A DNA stretch of 64,000 bases. Source: Convolutriloba macropyga (taxonomy: Eukaryota). Positions 13,105 to 60,199 of this stretch are shown here, piece after piece. How positions within the stretch are numbered: the first letter of the stretch is position 1; the number at the start of each line of letters is the position of its first letter. The stretch is taken from positions 41,230,001-41,294,000 of the forward strand of contig NC_134478.1 in NCBI RefSeq assembly GCF_964194025.1, given 5' to 3'. Under the pieces are notes generated by a model. It was not told where the DNA came from and searched no databases. It saw only the letters and a program-made list of their open reading frames with translations. Made by a program: the position numbers and the translations under genes.

Positions 13105-13737
13105 TCACACTACAAGTCTATAAGTCACATATCTTCCAGCAGTTTCAGACTTCCTAATAATTCTCACAACATCGCCCCTCTGGAGTCCAAAGTACCTCGC
13201 GACCGGATCCCCCATCTGGATTCTGGGTAGCTGATGATCCTTCAGTTTGTACCTCGTCAACAGTTCTTTCTTTTCCTCGGCTGTCATCAATACATGTTCA
13301 GGCACAAGCATATGTTCAGTGATGTTAATGAGCAATTCACATTCCATAAACTGTTCAAGGGTGTATTTAGGAGCCATATCTGTCAATGCAGCTTTAGCTG
13401 ATGGAGTCATACCACCTTGAACAATGATGATTGCACGTGTTATACTTTCTTCTTGCATCCTTTGACAATAATGCTTAATAGTCTTGATTCCAATCTTAGG
13501 TTCTTCAGGGAAGAAAACGAACATCTGATTTGTCGGGTCGTCGTTATGGGCAACCAATACAATGAGGTCTGATCTCGCGGGTTTTCTCTGACTCGGTGCA
13601 TTGCCAAATTTCTCGATGAACTGTTCGAGTGTTTCGTCCAATTCATCTTGTGTTACTAGGTATCCACGATCATGGCACAACTGCATGATGGTCTTGCGGA
13701 TTCTCCACAATTTGTAAGTTTCAGCTTCGTCATCCAT
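13105..13737 (-). CDS. POLR2E: DNA-directed RNA polymerases I/II/III subunit RPABC1 (RPB5), no intron in CDS
   Basis: 210 aa, [28 protein letters not shown]...DPVARYFGL...[13 protein letters not shown], readily recognisable as metazoan RPB5. Confidence 0.97.
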
Positions 13738-53139: not shown

Positions 53140-53569
53140 TATAGCAGCCGCCCGTGCGCAATATGTATTATCTTTTGTAGTTGAGCGTGGTACTTGTTTA
53201 AAATACAAGGATTGAAGTTTAATTGATAAGTAGATAAAAGCAGAAGAGAATTGTTTCAAATAAATGAAGATCAAATTGAGTGATCAACTCTGAAGGTAGG
53301 TTTATTGTTCAATGAGTGAGTTTTATCCTCAGTTTTGCCCGTATCCGATATCGGTTCTATCACCGTGGTAAATTAACCAAGTAAATACTGATATGTCACA
53401 ATTGTTAGTATTGCTCGAAGCCCGAGCTTTGTCTATTTCAATCTGTCGACACCTATCAAGATTGTGTCAGTCATTAATCAAGTAATAAATTAAAATTTAA
53501 ACTAAATCTTTGACCTTGAAACCCAAGGTTTTTAGTACACCCCTTTTTTACATACGTGTGACACTCACA
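53140..53569 (-). repeat. 3' LTR
   Basis: Direct repeat of 59763-60192, preceded by the PPT. Confidence 0.95.
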
Positions 53570-53582
53570 CTGCCCCCCTCTC
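53570..53582 (-). other. Polypurine tract GAGAGGGGGGCAG
   Basis: Directly 5' of the 3' LTR. Confidence 0.88.
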
Positions 53583-53698
53583 AATAAGAATAGAGTGTGC
53601 CACTCACTCACATAAAATCAAACAAATTTTACATCTCTCGATACATACGCGTTTTAAAATATAAAAAGTTTGTACTTTTCATATCAAAAGTTTAGGTA

Positions 53699-54556
53699 TC
53701 AGTTTTCGTCATTCATGACTTTCTCTGCCTCGTCCAGCCCGAAATTGTTGTACGCTTCTCGCGCCCCATCGTTTATCAGTATTTGGTATGCTCGATTAAT
53801 GGTCTTGAAAAACTCCTCATCTCCACCAGCATCAGGGTGAGTCAACAAGCTCATTTTGTGGTAGTGTTTTTTGATCTGATCTTTTGAAGCAGAACTTTTT
53901 ACCAACAAAATCTCGTACAATGTCGCAGGCCGATTCAATACATTTTTATTTCGAATCTCGAATAAACACTTCTCTGTGGCCTTCGTTTTGGCTCTCTCGT
54001 TCTTCAAAGAATGCTTTTGTCTATCAATTATAGTGTCTTTCCTTCGGCACTCACTCGCCAAGTACTGGTTATAGTTTTCCAACTGCTGAAGCTCTGACCT
54101 CAATTGGTCATTCTCTTTCTCCATGTTTTCCAGTGCTTCGCTCTTTTTATCAGTATTGACTTTTAGATCGGCTAACTCCTGCTTAAGTAAGTCGATTGAC
54201 TGCTCTTGTTCGGCATTTCTAGCTGCCGCCGCCTTTAGGTTATCTCTTAGCGCCCCACACTCGGCGCTCAGTTTTCCCAATGCTTCTCTTGTTGCCTCTT
54301 TGGCTTTTTCGCAATGTCTGTCTAGTTTTTGTCGAAGCTCGACAAGATCTTTTTGGAGTAAAGAGTTTGTACTCTTCAATTTCTCTAACTGCGCGCACTG
54401 GCTTTGCAGTTCCACTTCAGTCTGCAGAGCTCGGGACCGAATATTGGCGGGTGCCAGAAGTTCTAGTGTAGACACCTTCCGAGTCCGTGACAGATAAGAT
54501 TCCACTCGGTACACTCCCGGGGAAATCTCCGATATAACTTTCCACAACTCTGGCAT
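53699..54556 (-). CDS. Accessory protein: coiled coil + C-terminal DnaJ J-domain
   Basis: TLYEILLVKSSASKDQIKKHYHKMSLLTHPDAGGDEEFFKTINRAYQILINDGAREAYN shows J-domain helices I-IV with HPD, preceded by about 160 aa of heptad-rich sequence. The first in-frame ATG is at 54556, but the frame is open to about 54623. Confidence 0.85.
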   Translation of the reverse strand: MPELWKVISEISPGVYRVESYLSRTRKVSTLELLAPANIRSRALQTEVELQSQCAQLEKLKSTNSLLQKDLVELRQKLDRHCEKAKEATREALGKLSAECGALRDNLKAAAARNAEQEQSIDLLKQELADLKVNTDKKSEALENMEKENDQLRSELQQLENYNQYLASECRRKDTIIDRQKHSLKNERAKTKATEKCLFEIRNKNVLNRPATLYEILLVKSSASKDQIKKHYHKMSLLTHPDAGGDEEFFKTINRAYQILINDGAREAYNNFGLDEAEKVMNDEN

Positions 54557-54647
54557 ATAGTACACATATTCACCAATTTGTGGGGTCTCACTGCCTGCTA
54601 TGTTTAATAGAAACCATTTTTGGTTCTAAAGTTTCTCAAAATTTTCA

Positions 54648-54812
54648 GTCTTGATCTCAAGACTTCTCCCTTATTTTTAATTGTCTTGACCTCAAGACAA
54701 CTCTTTTTCATTTTTTTTTGGTCTTGAACTCAAGACAACTAATTTTAATTTTTTTTTGGTCTTGAACTCAAGACAAGTCATTTTCATTTTTTTTCCGTCC
54801 TGAACTCAAGAC
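54648..54812. repeat. Array of five 16-bp palindromes GTCTTGA-NC-TCAAGAC
   Basis: Units start at 54648, 54683, 54721, 54759 and 54797 (the last has one mismatch), with T-rich spacers. Confidence 0.92.
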
Positions 54813-54834
54813 AAGTCATTTTCATTCTTTTTTT

Positions 54835-55175
54835 TTACACAACCGACTCTTTCAAGGACTCTTTCTCTTCAATCATTTTTTTTTGTTCTTGACGCTCATT
54901 AATTAATTTGAGTAGTTGATTATACATACGTGTTCCCGTTACAGGGTCGAGATTCCGCAACAGTTGTTGCCAGGAAGCTCCATTAATGACTAATCCTAAA
55001 TAGATGAACAATTTAGGAAAATTTTTCACAACTTGGAATATGAGGTAGACTGTTAAGACTGACACAGCAATATCCTTAGCTTTTAACCAAACGTATAAGC
55101 TTTCAATTTTTAAGTTACGAAAAATTGTTATTTCATTCGTTAGAAAAAATTGTTTTTGGAACTGAGCGTTCCAAT
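54835..55175 (-). pseudogene. C-terminal remnant of a membrane-anchored, possibly env-like ORF
   Basis: Frame is open from the integrase breakpoint: NWNAQFQKQFFL...KDIAVSVLTVYLIFQVVKNFPKLFIYLGLVING, followed by a charged tail. Confidence 0.5.
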
Positions 55176-58100
55176 TCTTCTATTGTTCGATTTGTTCGTT
55201 CAATCATCGCGTTCCCTTGTGGGTGGTAGGATGTGGTTGATGTCCTCTGAATTCCTAGTTCACTGCAGAGACTACGAAACAATTTAGACATGAAGTTTGA
55301 CCCTTGGTCACTGTGTAGATTGACTGGACAGCCGAATCTTACTATCCAGTGTTCAACAAACGCTTTTGCCACAGTTTTTGCCTCTTGATTGGGTAACGCT
55401 ACAGCTTCGTACCACTTACTGAATTGATCACCGATAAGCAAAATGTACTTGATTCCCTGAGACTCGGGAAGTGGACCCATGATATCAAGAGATACTTGCC
55501 AAAATGGATGACTAGGTTTCCATTTTGAGAGTGAATGCCGATGTTTCTGCTTAGTGCCTTTCCTTTTTAGGCAAACGTCACAGCTTTCTATCCAGTTTCT
55601 TACGTCCCTTCTCATGCACGGCCAATAAAACCTATCGCAAGCTCTTTTGTACGTTTTCTCTATACCAAAGTGTCCTGCGCTAGGCGAATCATGCAACAGC
55701 TCAAGAACGTTGGACACTCTACCCCAGGGTACCAGCATTTGGTAAACAGTTTCAAAGTTAGGTTCTGTTTGGTGTTTTCGATACAAAATCCCTTCTATGA
55801 GAAAAAGATTTTTATACTGAACCCAGTATTTCCATAACTCCTTTGAAGCTCCGTTTCTCATTTGCCGTGGTTCGGGTCTTTTTTTGTTTATGACCCATGA
55901 ATATACTTCTTTGAGTATATTGTCATTTTGCTGCGAATCTCGCAGTTTTACTCTCTGCAGCTTGTGTAACTGCCAACCTCGACTACTATAGTCGGTATCG
56001 TCTTGCTCTACGTCTAGCGCAATAGCGTTAACGAAAGATGTTTGTTCCTCATCTTCTGTGTTTATGCGCGAAAGACAGTCAGCGTGTGGGATTTTCTTTC
56101 CTGCTCTATGCTTGATGTCAAAATTAAATTGCCCAAGTTTCTCTATCCATCTTGCGACCATACCGTCTGGTTCTTTAAAACTATAGATCCACACGAGAGC
56201 CCTGTGGTCTGTTATAATTAAAAAGTGCTGACCAAGTAAATAGTTTTTAAAATAATGGGTAAAATGAACTATTGCGAATAATTCCCGCTTAGTTGCTGAG
56301 TAGTTTCGTTGACTTTTACTCAAAGTTTTGCTAGCATATGCAATAACTCTATCCTCAGTTCCTTGTTTTTGTGTAAGAATTGCTCCGATGCCTGTCAACT
56401 ATGCATCGGTAGTTAATGTATATTGATCCCTATCGTTTGGATATCCTAAAACTGGGGCTTCTTTTTCTTCAACTCTGCTACCGCACTAGTGCACTCTGTA
56501 CTCCATTCAAATTTATTTGATTTATTTAGTAACCTGTAAAGAGGTTCTGCTGTTTTTCCGAAACCCGGAATGAATTTTCGATAATAGCCCACAAGGCCCA
56601 GAAAAGCCCTGACGTCTTTTAGGGATGATGGTTCTTTCATTTTTTCTACCGCTCTTACTTTCTCTGGGTCGACCTCGACACCACTCTCAGATATAATATG
56701 TCCTAAAAAGCTGAAGCGCTTTTGGAAGAAATTGCATTTTGATCCTTTAATCTTTAATCCATTCTCCGATAAACGTTGGAAAACCAGCTCTAACCGTTTA
56801 AGATGTTCTTCAAAATTTCTTCCGAAGACGATAACGTCGTCTAGATAAACTAAAGCTACTTCGTAAGAGAGACCAGCAAAAATTAATTCCATTAGGTTTT
56901 GAAAAGCTCCTGGTGCAGAAGCTAGTCCCATAGGGAGCCTCTTCCACTTATATAGGCCCAAAGGTGTAATAAAAGCTGTTACATTTTGACTCTCTTCTTC
57001 CAGCGCCATTTGAAAGTATCCCGACAGAAGATCAATGTTTGAGAAGTACATGTTTCCCTCCAGTGAATCAATAACCTCATTAATTCGCGGTAAAGGCCAG
57101 CATGTTTTCTCTATTTGTTTGTTTAGACCACGGTAGTCTACAACTAAACGGTAGGTTCCGTCTTTTTTTGGTACCAGTAATGATGGTGCTGCCCAATCAG
57201 AGTGTGTTGGTTCGACTAAGTCATCTCGTTCCAAGTCTTCGACAATTTTCTTCATGGCTTTTCTTTTCTCAAAGCTCATGCTGCCGTATGTACGTCTGAA
57301 TGGCACAGCATCATTTTTTAATTTTTATGATAAATTCGGTCGCAAAATCCCATATCATTTGAGTTTCGCGAAAATATCATTTCATATTTTGTGCAAAGTG
57401 ACCTCAGTTTTGACATTTCCTCACAAGACAAGCTCATTGAACTTGAGTTCACGTGTTTGTTGAAATTAAATTCGTCTCTATGCTTTTTATTATTGTCGGG
57501 GTTATTTTGTTGTACTCTTGAAATGTTTTCAATGTTTTCCGCACATGCGATTCTCGCATTTTTGTAAACTTTCTTTGATTCTAATGTAGGATTCAGAGCT
57601 CGAACCCATGCGACATCATCAACCATGTCATTCAGCGATCTCGCTATTAATAAGTGTGATTTGTCTTCAAACCCTTTCATAGGTTCGACTATAATTTCTG
57701 TTTGCTGTGTTATGTTACCTTCTTCATCGATAATTTTGCATTTAATGAAACCCTTGCAGCGACGAGGTAATTCTTGATCCTCAGCAGCAATTAAAAACAG
57801 ATTCCTATTACTTCGTTGGTATGGGGCCAATTGTAATGTTTTCCCAATCGCCCCGCAAGAAAGTTCGTTCTTTCTGAGATTTAAAATACAGTCAAAATTG
57901 TACAAGAACTCCATGCCTAATAAACAAGGCGTTATCTCAATTCTGGTCACTAGAAATTTGACTGTTATTTCACATGTAAATTTCTGAAGTTGAACTTGAA
58001 TATCTGTTGACCCCATTATAGGCATTTTCCCGTTATTGGCAGCTATTATATTTTTATTGCACATTCTGATCTGGCTTGGTTCCCCCAATTGCTTGTAGAG

Positions 58101-58274
58101 TGTGTCGCTTATAATATTAACACTACTTCCACTATCAATTAAGGCCATTATTAATTTGTCTTTTATCATTATTTTTGCGAACAACGCCTCCACTGGGCTG
58201 TTTCCGCCACGCAAGGTTTTTACGTAGCCGGCTGAAAATGAAGCCCTGCCATTTCCAGCTAATTCTCTTTTAAA
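55157..58274 (-). pseudogene. pol: Pol (protease, RT, RNase H, integrase) with frameshifts, a stop and a C-terminal deletion
   Basis: LIDSGS, YLDD, TDA*LTGIGA (stop at 56399-56401), H..H..CDVC, DIMG/SDQG/IERTNR. Frameshifts at about 57320 and 56460. Integrase ends shortly after the catalytic Glu. Confidence 0.92.
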
Positions 58275-59290
58275 TACGGACAATTTCGTTTGAAGTGATT
58301 CGGGCTCCCGCATTCGAAACCATTTTTGCATTCCCTAGATGCATGGTTTCGCTGACCGCAACGGCGACATTTTTCTTTCTCGAAACTCACCGCTGCCTTC
58401 GACTGCTCGGCACGACTCTCGTGCGATCGATCTCGGCTTCTGTTCTCACCTCCCGGTGTTAGCGAACGCGCTCTACTTTCGTAATTGTTTCGTCTATGCT
58501 CAGCGCTGCTTCTAGTATAGCCATTAGTATTTCTATTTCTATCTTCGTTCTCTCTTGAACTTCGCTGACTACCGCGCAGAAACTCTTTTGGCCGCGCTCC
58601 TTGCGATGAAAACTTTTGATTCTCTCGCCTATTAGGTTGATTAGTCTGCAGTGTTTGCACTAAATCGTTAATCGAATTAACCAGTTGTGTGTTTTCATTC
58701 GACTGGATGGCAGAAACCCGCGGCTCATTATCCTCCTCCTCAATTCTCGTGACTGCTTCAATGTGTAGTGCTCTTTCTAAAGCTTTGTCTAAAGTCATAT
58801 CCGCGTCACCCAAGTTCTTTCTCAGGTCGAGTCGCACCTGACTATTTTCTATGCCTTCGAGGAATCCTCTCAAAATGAGATGTTCTCTTATCTCATTAGA
58901 CTCCTGAGGGTATGCTTTCAAGGCTAAAGTTTGCAAATCACCGAGAAAATCTGTTAATTTTTCACCAGGCTGTTGGACTCTCCTAGCTAGCCTCCCCCGG
59001 AACACTACTGGTTTCTCATTATAATGTTGTCTGAAAGCCTTTACGGTTTCGTCATAACTTTTTCTAGTGTCCTCCGAAAGTGTACGATAGAAATCAATGG
59101 CCGACTTTTGTAACCTTAACGCGAAATAATGCGGCCGTTCATCAATTTCGGTCTCGGCGCCGTTTACTGTTTCTTTTCTTTGCCACTTTTGGAGTTGTGA
59201 CAAGAGCTCAAAGTGTGTAATGTAACTTTCAAAATCATTTGATCCATTAAACGGTTCCGGTAACAGCGTTTTTGAGGAGTGCCGCGCCAT
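58259..59290 (-). CDS. gag: Gag (capsid + nucleocapsid)
   Basis: PEPFNGS...F, RVQQPGEKLTDF (MHR-like), CRRCGQRNHASREC, and a second knuckle with the first Cys replaced by Gly. Confidence 0.92.
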   Translation of the reverse strand: MARHSSKTLLPEPFNGSNDFESYITHFELLSQLQKWQRKETVNGAETEIDERPHYFALRLQKSAIDFYRTLSEDTRKSYDETVKAFRQHYNEKPVVFRGRLARRVQQPGEKLTDFLGDLQTLALKAYPQESNEIREHLILRGFLEGIENSQVRLDLRKNLGDADMTLDKALERALHIEAVTRIEEEDNEPRVSAIQSNENTQLVNSINDLVQTLQTNQPNRRENQKFSSQGARPKEFLRGSQRSSRENEDRNRNTNGYTRSSAEHRRNNYESRARSLTPGGENRSRDRSHESRAEQSKAAVSFEKEKCRRCGQRNHASRECKNGFECGSPNHFKRNCPYLKEN

Positions 59291-59747
59291 CCTTATTTTA
59301 TTTAAAAGCTGTTGTTATTCAAAATATTCAACTAATTCTGTTCGAAACTCGAACTATTTTTCCGACACTCTAGTTAACAGCTTTTAAATATGATTGAAAC
59401 TCTAATTCCCTCGTCAATAAATGCAAAAAAACTCGAGGTTTAATGCTTGAGTTTAAGTCAAATTAAGTCAAATTAAAATACTGATGTTTCTGAACGCTAT
59501 TTTATTATCAAAAAAACATGTACGCCCTGATTTATGCTTTTCGAATTTTTAGGGAGTACTCACTTTATAGTTCCAAGATGGCAGTTGTTGTTGTCGAATC
59601 CCGACAGCAGTCCACAATTCCTCTTCCGGGTCGTGATGTTAAGACGTCGAACTCGAGTTTAAAAATTGGTTTTCAAACAAAAAATAGATTTCTCTTGTAT
59701 TAGTACAACGCTCAATGTTATTGGGTGGTGGTTTTCTATTTACTTTT

Positions 59748-59761
59748 AATCTCTGTCGCCA
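59748..59761 (-). other. Primer-binding site TGGCGACAGAGATT
   Basis: TGG-starting motif 1 nt after the 5' LTR. The priming tRNA was not identified. Confidence 0.8.
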
Positions 59762-59762
59762 C

Positions 59763-60192
59763 TATAGCAGCCGCCCGTGCGCAATATGTATTATCTTTTG
59801 TAGTTGAGCGTGGTACTTGTTTAAAATACAAGGATTGAAGTTTAATTGATAAGTAGATAAAAGCAGAAGAGAATTGTTTCAAATAAATGAAGATCAAATT
59901 GAGTGATCAACTCTGAAGGTAGGTTTATTGTTCAATGAGTGAGTTTTATCCTCAGTTTTGCCCGTATCCGATATCGGTTCTATCACCGTGGTAAATTAAC
60001 CAAGTAAATACTGATATGTCACAATTGTTAGTATTGCTCGAAGCCCGAGCTTTGTCTATTTCAATCTGTCGACACCTATCAAGATTGTGTCAGTCATTAA
60101 TCAAGTAATAAATTAAAATTTAAACTAAATCTTTGACCTTGAAACCCAAGGTTTTTAGTACACCCCTTTTTTACATACGTGTGACACTCACA
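59763..60192 (-). repeat. 5' LTR (TGTGAG...GCTATA)
   Basis: No mismatch to 53140-53569 seen by eye. Confidence 0.95.
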
Positions 60193-60199
60193 CAGGTTT

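Follow-up and report, generated by a model that had tools for sequence, protein, structure and literature searches.

A fourth gene in an env-bearing Gypsy element: a predicted class C J-domain co-chaperone with signs of purifying selection

What would a J-domain do between the LTRs of a Gypsy element, and is the frame encoding it a gene of that element at all? The window, i.e., the whole stretch of 64,000 nucleotides from Convolutriloba macropyga that was analyzed, contains on its minus strand a Ty3/Gypsy LTR element with an LTR pair, a primer-binding-site-like sequence, a polypurine tract (PPT), gag, pol, and a further open frame with a J-domain, here called the J gene. The parts are given in element order with window coordinates; family A is the family of this copy and family B a second one from the same genome.

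59763–60193, minus strand: 5′ LTR, in element sense starting with TG and ending with TATA; 431 of 431 positions identical to the 3′ LTR
59749–59762, minus strand: primer-binding-site-like sequence TGGCGACAGAGA, identical in family B
59558–59563, minus strand: candidate splice donor (AA/GTGAGT) in the leader, also present in the family B leader
58259–59290, minus strand: gag, an open frame with two CCHC knuckles (PF00098)
55176–58334, minus strand: pol, PR-RT-RNaseH-IN (PF13975, PF00078, PF17917, PF17921, PF00665)
55175–55176, no strand: junction of a ~2.73-kb deletion, from alignment to a full-length sister
54835–55175, minus strand: C-terminal remnant of env with hydrophobic anchor and tail, near-identical to the end of a 666–677-aa sister ORF (PF24664)
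54642–54863, no strand: spacer of 38-nt tandem repeats between env and J gene in family A (~20 nt there in family B)
53699–54625, minus strand: accessory J gene, delimited by stops; its earliest in-frame ATG is at 54556, and homology with the other lineages sets in at ~54583
54430–54583, minus strand: predicted N-terminal SH3-like β-barrel (Tudor/KOW/PWWP-type), from pLDDT and fold matches
53945–54420, minus strand: predicted coiled coil of ~158 residues, differing in length among lineages
53747–53920, minus strand: J-domain, with HPD at 53839–53831
53571–53585, minus strand: PPT, ~115 bases beyond the J-gene stop
53140–53570, minus strand: 3′ LTR, 431 of 431 positions identical to the 5′ LTR

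The first-pass annotation had described an uninterrupted ORF of ~285 aa with a long coiled coil and a complete J-domain including HPD, in element sense between the LTRs and just before the PPT, and this description holds in both content and placement. The stop-to-stop frame comprises 308 codons, and the protein has 285 aa when counted from the first ATG. Pfam DnaJ (PF00226) matched the ORF with an E value of 3.7e-16 and 59.4 bits (cut-off 27.8) over model positions 2–63 of 63; the rest of the ORF matched coiled-coil families below threshold. In the AlphaFold model, residues 56–213 form a single helix, and the J fold, in which helices II and III flank the HPD, matches the J-domains of Sis1, DNAJB9, and Tid1. 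Class C proteins have this J fold but neither the G/F region and zinc finger nor the C-terminal domain of DnaJ; in Pfam, DnaJ was the only domain above the cut-off, and the J gene is predicted to encode a co-chaperone of class C.

The 64 N-terminal residues, when folded alone, gave a small β-barrel (pLDDT 90–94 over residues 11–50). Structurally, it matched PWWP, Tudor, KOW, and SH3 domains about equally well (Z ∼7); the best VIA Z scores were 7.5 (rmsd 7.8, 60 aligned), 7.4 (1.6, 50), and 7.3 (1.3, 50), with KOW domains tied and the range spanning 7.5–7.2. The barrel profile had no significant match among PDB sequences and Pfam, the ESM Atlas yielded no usable match for the barrel, and all matches of the relative P0347 there were under 0.8. 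The same N-terminus had been likened to the GPY/F module that ends Gypsy integrases. Of this claim, the SH3-like barrel stands as a predicted fold, but the integrase origin is unsupported: the GPY motif is absent from the alignment; hhalign against integrase C-termini returned a probability of 0.7% and a score of 12.9, which at least 6 of 60 shuffles exceeded (the profiles being shallow, Neff ∼2.8); PF22938 was not matched by the barrel at E ≤ 10; and full-length sisters of the element possess a separate integrase C-terminus of their own (PF22938, E 1.3e-7). An integrase domain occurred in none of the best 120 of 150 matches of the barrel profile to longer proteins. RSV integrase was found among the Foldseek matches of the barrel at rank 38 (E 0.14), behind Tudor, PWWP, and SH3 domains.

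Other parts of the window contain tandem 4.5–4.8-kb duplicates with ORFs at 30215–32049 and 34861–36540 (plus strand), the products of which seem to resemble a zinc-finger plus tyrosine-recombinase-type protein. Long uninterrupted frames are present at 13105–13773, 20777–21586, and 21967–22359 (minus strand), which we take to resemble RPB5 (an RNA polymerase subunit), V-ATPase subunit D, and an ESCRT-III Snf7-type protein. Two kinds of LINE-type reverse transcriptase fragments were recognized by eye at 23171–25267 (plus strand) and 25730–29477 (minus strand).

When the 1.18-Gb genome was searched with the J protein as query, at least 134 matches of the family A J gene were found, a lower bound because 132 of 2724 candidates were scored. 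Twenty sisters were selected where integrase and J matches were paired. They are mostly 9.7–9.9 kb long (∼9.8 kb), their LTR pairs are 94.5–99.8% identical, and their ends are defined by target-site duplications, with a perfect 4-bp duplication in 11 of the 20. The sisters share the order gag, pol, env, 38-nt tandem spacer, J gene, and PPT. Their env is an ORF of 666–677 aa with hydrophobic ends, matching PF24664 (Monjiviricetes, chuvirus-type fusion glycoprotein) above the cut-off (E 1.7e-10); against PDB sequences, Env had no match at E ≤ 1. Because gag, pol, env, and J gene are all present in full-length sisters, the element is an env-bearing, four-gene Gypsy element. The copy in the window is a deletion derivative that has lost ∼2.73 kb at 55175, with which the C-terminal part of the integrase and the greater part of env are gone, and env was absent from the first reading of this copy. 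Its env remnant amounts to the last ∼113 codons, and its pol, which carries lesions, is split into three frame pieces and severed within the integrase core. The deletion is private to this copy (1 of 30 J-gene loci); the other 29 of these first 30 loci lack integrase directly upstream. The target-site duplication of the window copy agrees at three of four letters. Its LTRs (53140–53570 and 59763–60193) have two letters in common that each occur in at most 1 of 39 sister LTRs. Since the pair shares rare letters despite a broken and deleted interior, the copy probably descends from a parent that was itself defective and was mobilized in trans, unless homogenization has made its LTRs alike.

Judged by its sequence, the element fits the gB-type errantiviruses as described in the retrieved text of Chary and Hayashi (eLife 2026, PMC13524379), with an env after pol that is related to chuvirus/herpes gB fusogens and with several highly similar copies. 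To see how regularly the J gene accompanies it, copies can be picked irrespective of that gene: with an integrase probe, 35 of 40 family A copies were followed by a J gene in the same orientation, at a distance of up to ∼6 kb. Of the remaining five, two had a partial or inverted J piece, one was cut inside the integrase, and one had a downstream stretch too short to judge; the fifth was without a J gene, and its PPT and the initial 30 bases of its LTR were missing as well. Short derivatives of family A (L009 and L011 on G000 C3933, L003, and L015) have nothing but the env tail and the J gene behind the primer-binding site, and lie partly in tandem arrays with common LTRs and a unit of ∼2.2 kb; short family B derivatives with 1.8-kb spacing are located at G000 C10 58.95–58.97 Mb. 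That the J gene is kept in these derivatives is not evidence, because the loci were found by J-gene search.

Family B, which was found via distant homologues, has at least 138 matches in the genome. It is ∼54% identical to family A in gag, ∼54% in pol, ∼31% in env, and ∼27% in J, and its env also matches PF24664 above the cut-off (E 8e-15). The order gag, pol, env, J was found in 9 of 10 stretches, with PPT and LTR directly behind J; the tenth was broken by a family A insertion. At one locus (L131, G000 C7 48.60–48.61 Mb), a family A fragment lies inverted within a family B copy. Recurrence in most integrase-picked copies and in a second family is what was expected of an accessory gene of the lineage, as the first-pass annotation had proposed, and not of a one-off transduction. 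Other env-bearing families of this genome propagate without a J gene: the J profile matched none of 30 loci of other PF24664-bearing families with the flank covered. Two unrelated PF24664 Gypsy-like families, with env frames of 898 aa and 769 aa, also have post-env ORFs, of 274–284 aa and 611 aa, without Pfam match (L268:1527–2348 and L269:1317–3149; G000 C6 and C2); a second copy of the family with the 769-aa env has additional ORFs downstream.

Protein searches returned more proteins with the layout of barrel, coil, and J-domain. The 13 representatives comprise nine lineages at 25–44% identity and one J-only fragment, and HPD is present in all 13. In the J-domain tree (midpoint root; the degraded relatives P0148 and P0199 excluded), they group with 100/100 support apart from 22 other J-domains, the database matches that served as outgroup. 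The barrel is present in all full-length lineages. Barrel and J-domain, the latter being the best conserved part, are conserved across lineages and the coil varies in length, which is the pattern of a targeting module, a spacer, and an Hsp70 activator. Four representatives searched against this genome matched at 50% or less and thus stem from other assemblies. One cluster of relatives, whose 20 members differ in length and lie on long contigs, resembles a multicopy repeat, and the relatives presumably sit in LTR elements as well; locus scans with single proteins gave one weak match of 36 residues, located in a metagenome record of 1.8 kb, whereas viral contigs gave no match. For P0137 and P0357, two J-gene lineages that are 27% identical, the longest contig is 10,100 bases in both cases, and they may share one contig.

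The env of errantiviruses is expressed from a spliced subgenomic RNA. The GTGAGT of the leader was found in 19 of 28 family A and 11 of 22 family B stretches. A pyrimidine-rich CAG precedes env in 20 of 29 family A stretches, and in family B a TAG lies two bases ahead of the J start codon in 14 of 22. Since both families have a leader donor and an AG just before env and J gene, respectively, the J gene would be translated from a spliced subgenomic RNA. In four genome-sized contig sets, the joints listed included none from leader to J gene, which has no bearing on expression. In family A, there is no in-frame ATG ahead of the first barrel strand, and 25 of 29 stretches have ATA at the codon aligned to the family B start (the other four had no match), so the family A barrel may be clipped. 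Translation of family A could possibly start at a non-AUG codon, in an upstream exon, or at a later methionine.

Because copies decay neutrally after insertion, variants were split into those found in a single copy and those common to three or more copies. This was done with 40 copies per family, 18 family A and 12 family B loci having been removed as duplicates of places already included or as tandem twins, and pN/pS was computed without a transition-bias term. For the J gene of family B, pN/pS was 0.96 for single-copy variants (316 N, 88 S) and 0.14 for common ones (31 N, 59 S; 0.15 without CpG sites), with a Fisher p of 4.5e-15 for variants that are, in the common class, not independent events. 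The common-variant values for its domains were similarly low (barrel 0.13, coiled coil 0.16, J-domain 0.11), as were those of family B gag (0.16), RT-RH (0.08), IN (0.05), and env (0.14; 12–15 copies). Family A is younger than B and has few common variants. Its J gene had a pN/pS of 0.44 (18 N, 11 S), which is not significant (p 0.13; 40 copies), and 0.24 with 28 copies; the J-domain alone had 0.19 (3 N, 4 S; p 0.027), and the barrel few common variants (2 N, 0 S). The integrase of family A likewise missed significance (p 0.12). The HPD motif is preserved in 37 of 40 family A and 33 of 40 family B copies. The constraint that had been asked for in this ORF (dN/dS below 1) is seen, as pN/pS of common variants, in family B, but not significantly in family A. 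Disabling lesions are a different matter: in the 20 family A sisters, the J gene had 1.34 per kb compared with 1.25–1.80 per kb for gag, RT-RH, integrase, and env. The remark that the J ORF is open while pol has lesions is therefore correct for the window copy, in which pol is broken, but as evidence it reflects chance. The low J lesion rate in family B (0.36 per kb) was rejected as a signal; it is an artefact, as the copies were picked via unbroken J matches. On the variants analyzed, the J gene is under purifying selection, significantly so in family B, and we put the probability that it is a real, selected accessory gene at about 0.92. While pol diverged to 54% identity between the families, the lineage retained this fourth gene.

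How such a protein might act is suggested by its architecture. A conserved barrel, a variable spacer, an HPD-containing J-domain, and the lack of a secretion signal argue for a class C J protein that would bring Hsp70 to one client. It is likely that the protein works through Hsp70, which would tie the element to the central chaperone of its host. No signal peptide or membrane anchor was seen in the sequence of the J protein, so that its action would be cytosolic. We favor the following sequence of events: the barrel would dock on the element's own particle, either the Gag shell or the Pol complex; the J-domain would switch on cytosolic Hsp70 at the particle; and Hsp70 there would help assembly or uncoating. 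The particle as target, to which we give slightly less than even odds, is placed first by analogy with viral class C J proteins, for which the retrieved part of PMC3486835 describes roles in replication and capsid morphogenesis. A complex prediction of the barrel with the 203 N-terminal residues of Gag, run without alignments, scored 0.00, a value informative neither way. The particle reading is weakened by the other env-bearing families of this genome that propagate without a J gene, and the Tudor/PWWP/KOW matches of the barrel would be equally compatible with a chromatin or small-RNA target in the host.

A silencing factor as the client is placed second because of the Tudor/PWWP-like fold and because Hsp70 can, according to the retrieved part of 10.1101/423210, cause piRNA biogenesis in Drosophila to collapse and transposons to become active. 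The barrel would then bind a PIWI/Argonaute complex, a Tudor protein, or a chromatin mark, and Hsp70 would dismantle or misroute this factor, lifting the silencing of the element. The best barrel folds are indeed PWWP, Tudor (PHF19, TDRD3, SMN, Krimper), and KOW domains, a host J protein that binds a specific Argonaute is described in the retrieved part of PMC11194074, and the J gene diverges between the families as fast as env (27% identity in J versus 54% in pol). However, the tied Z of ∼7 is a level common for small barrels, and all three domains of family B are under strong purifying selection, so that nothing at this depth points to an arms race. The methyl cage of Tudor domains needs aromatics at the turn between the third and fourth strands, whereas aromatic residues of the barrel alignment (assessed by eye) are kept in the first three strands and not conserved at this turn. 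Counter-defense is, on balance, doubtful. Still less likely is its widest form, an old lineage of "complex" invertebrate endogenous retroviruses in several animal genomes, with a spliced accessory Hsp70 co-chaperone whose Tudor-like barrel aims Hsp70 at piRNA or chromatin silencing.

The J protein could also manipulate Hsp70 in general, as a decoy or stress modulator that sequesters or activates the chaperone (for instance, raising chaperone levels or blocking cell death) without a specific target. A phage J protein stabilizes a heat-shock factor through DnaK (retrieved part of PMC3486835), and the J-domain is the part conserved best. However, the barrel is retained in all full-length lineages and, in family B, selected as strongly as the J-domain, which suggests a specific partner and makes general manipulation improbable. 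That the J gene is a neutral passenger, i.e., a fragment of a host DnaJ picked up in a single transduction and kept because it lies next to the 3′ LTR, is very improbable and appears largely refuted by the common-variant pN/pS of 0.14: although family A alone is short of significance, lesions accrue after insertion as in pol, and one integrase-picked copy lacks the gene, such decay is expected in every retrotransposon gene, the gene holds the same position in two families with J proteins 27% identical yet open with HPD, and the nine lineages form one clade. Action on the particle of the element remains our preferred reading, and with the small, defined J protein one could study what Hsp70 does for retroelement particles or by what means elements withstand piRNA silencing.

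To our knowledge, env-bearing Gypsy elements of invertebrates are described as three-gene elements. The first-pass annotation knew of no LTR retrotransposon with a J-domain module, and none was found in the top-ranked full-text literature (subscription journals, Repbase, Dfam, and GyDB lying outside this scope); PMC9004415, PMC9940879, and PMC3852528 mention Gypsy and DnaJ but are, in their retrieved parts, unrelated. The element is read as a gB-type errantivirus in which selection maintains a predicted co-chaperone gene, a combination not found described for retrotransposons in the literature searched. Closest are the gB-type "ancient errantiviruses" (PMC13524379), which, in the retrieved text, share the Ty3/Gypsy pol, the order gag-pol-env, many similar copies, LTRs with a primer-binding site, and an env related to chuvirus/herpes gB glycoproteins; the element described here differs by its fourth gene behind env. 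The retrieved text of that article has no match for DnaJ, J-domain, accessory, or chaperone, its seven supplements have none for DnaJ, J-domain, ORF4, or HSP40, and the annotation pipeline, as described there, covers gag, pol, and env only. The unnamed post-env ORFs of two unrelated env-bearing families in the present genome suggest that surveys annotating these three genes alone miss accessory genes.

Anakin of mosquitoes (Dezordi 2020, PMC7642597) is likewise an LTR element with a chuvirus-like glycoprotein (fusogen), but belongs to BEL/Pao rather than Gypsy, and its abstract does not mention a J gene. Accessory genes as such are known from bdelloid LTR retrotransposons, the ORF3s of which encode a GDSL esterase, a DEDDy exonuclease, and coiled-coil or TM ORFs (Rodriguez 2017, PMC5408684). 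These are also family-specific ORFs before the 3′ LTR of Gypsy-like elements from invertebrates; in the retrieved text, however, DnaJ has no match, and the ORFs replace env and show no clear departure from neutrality, whereas the J gene lies behind env and is, by its variants, under purifying selection. The protein itself finds its best parallel among virus-encoded class C J proteins, which recruit host Hsp70 (PMC3486835, retrieved part): polyomavirus T antigens, the J protein of Molluscum contagiosum, and Rki of phage RB43 likewise have the J-domain only, fused to a virus-specific part. Those are proteins of DNA viruses and phages, not of retroelements, and the J-domain predicted here lies at the C-terminus, preceded by an SH3-like barrel and a long coil. 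The J gene would be the retroelement counterpart of the J-domains of polyomavirus T antigens.
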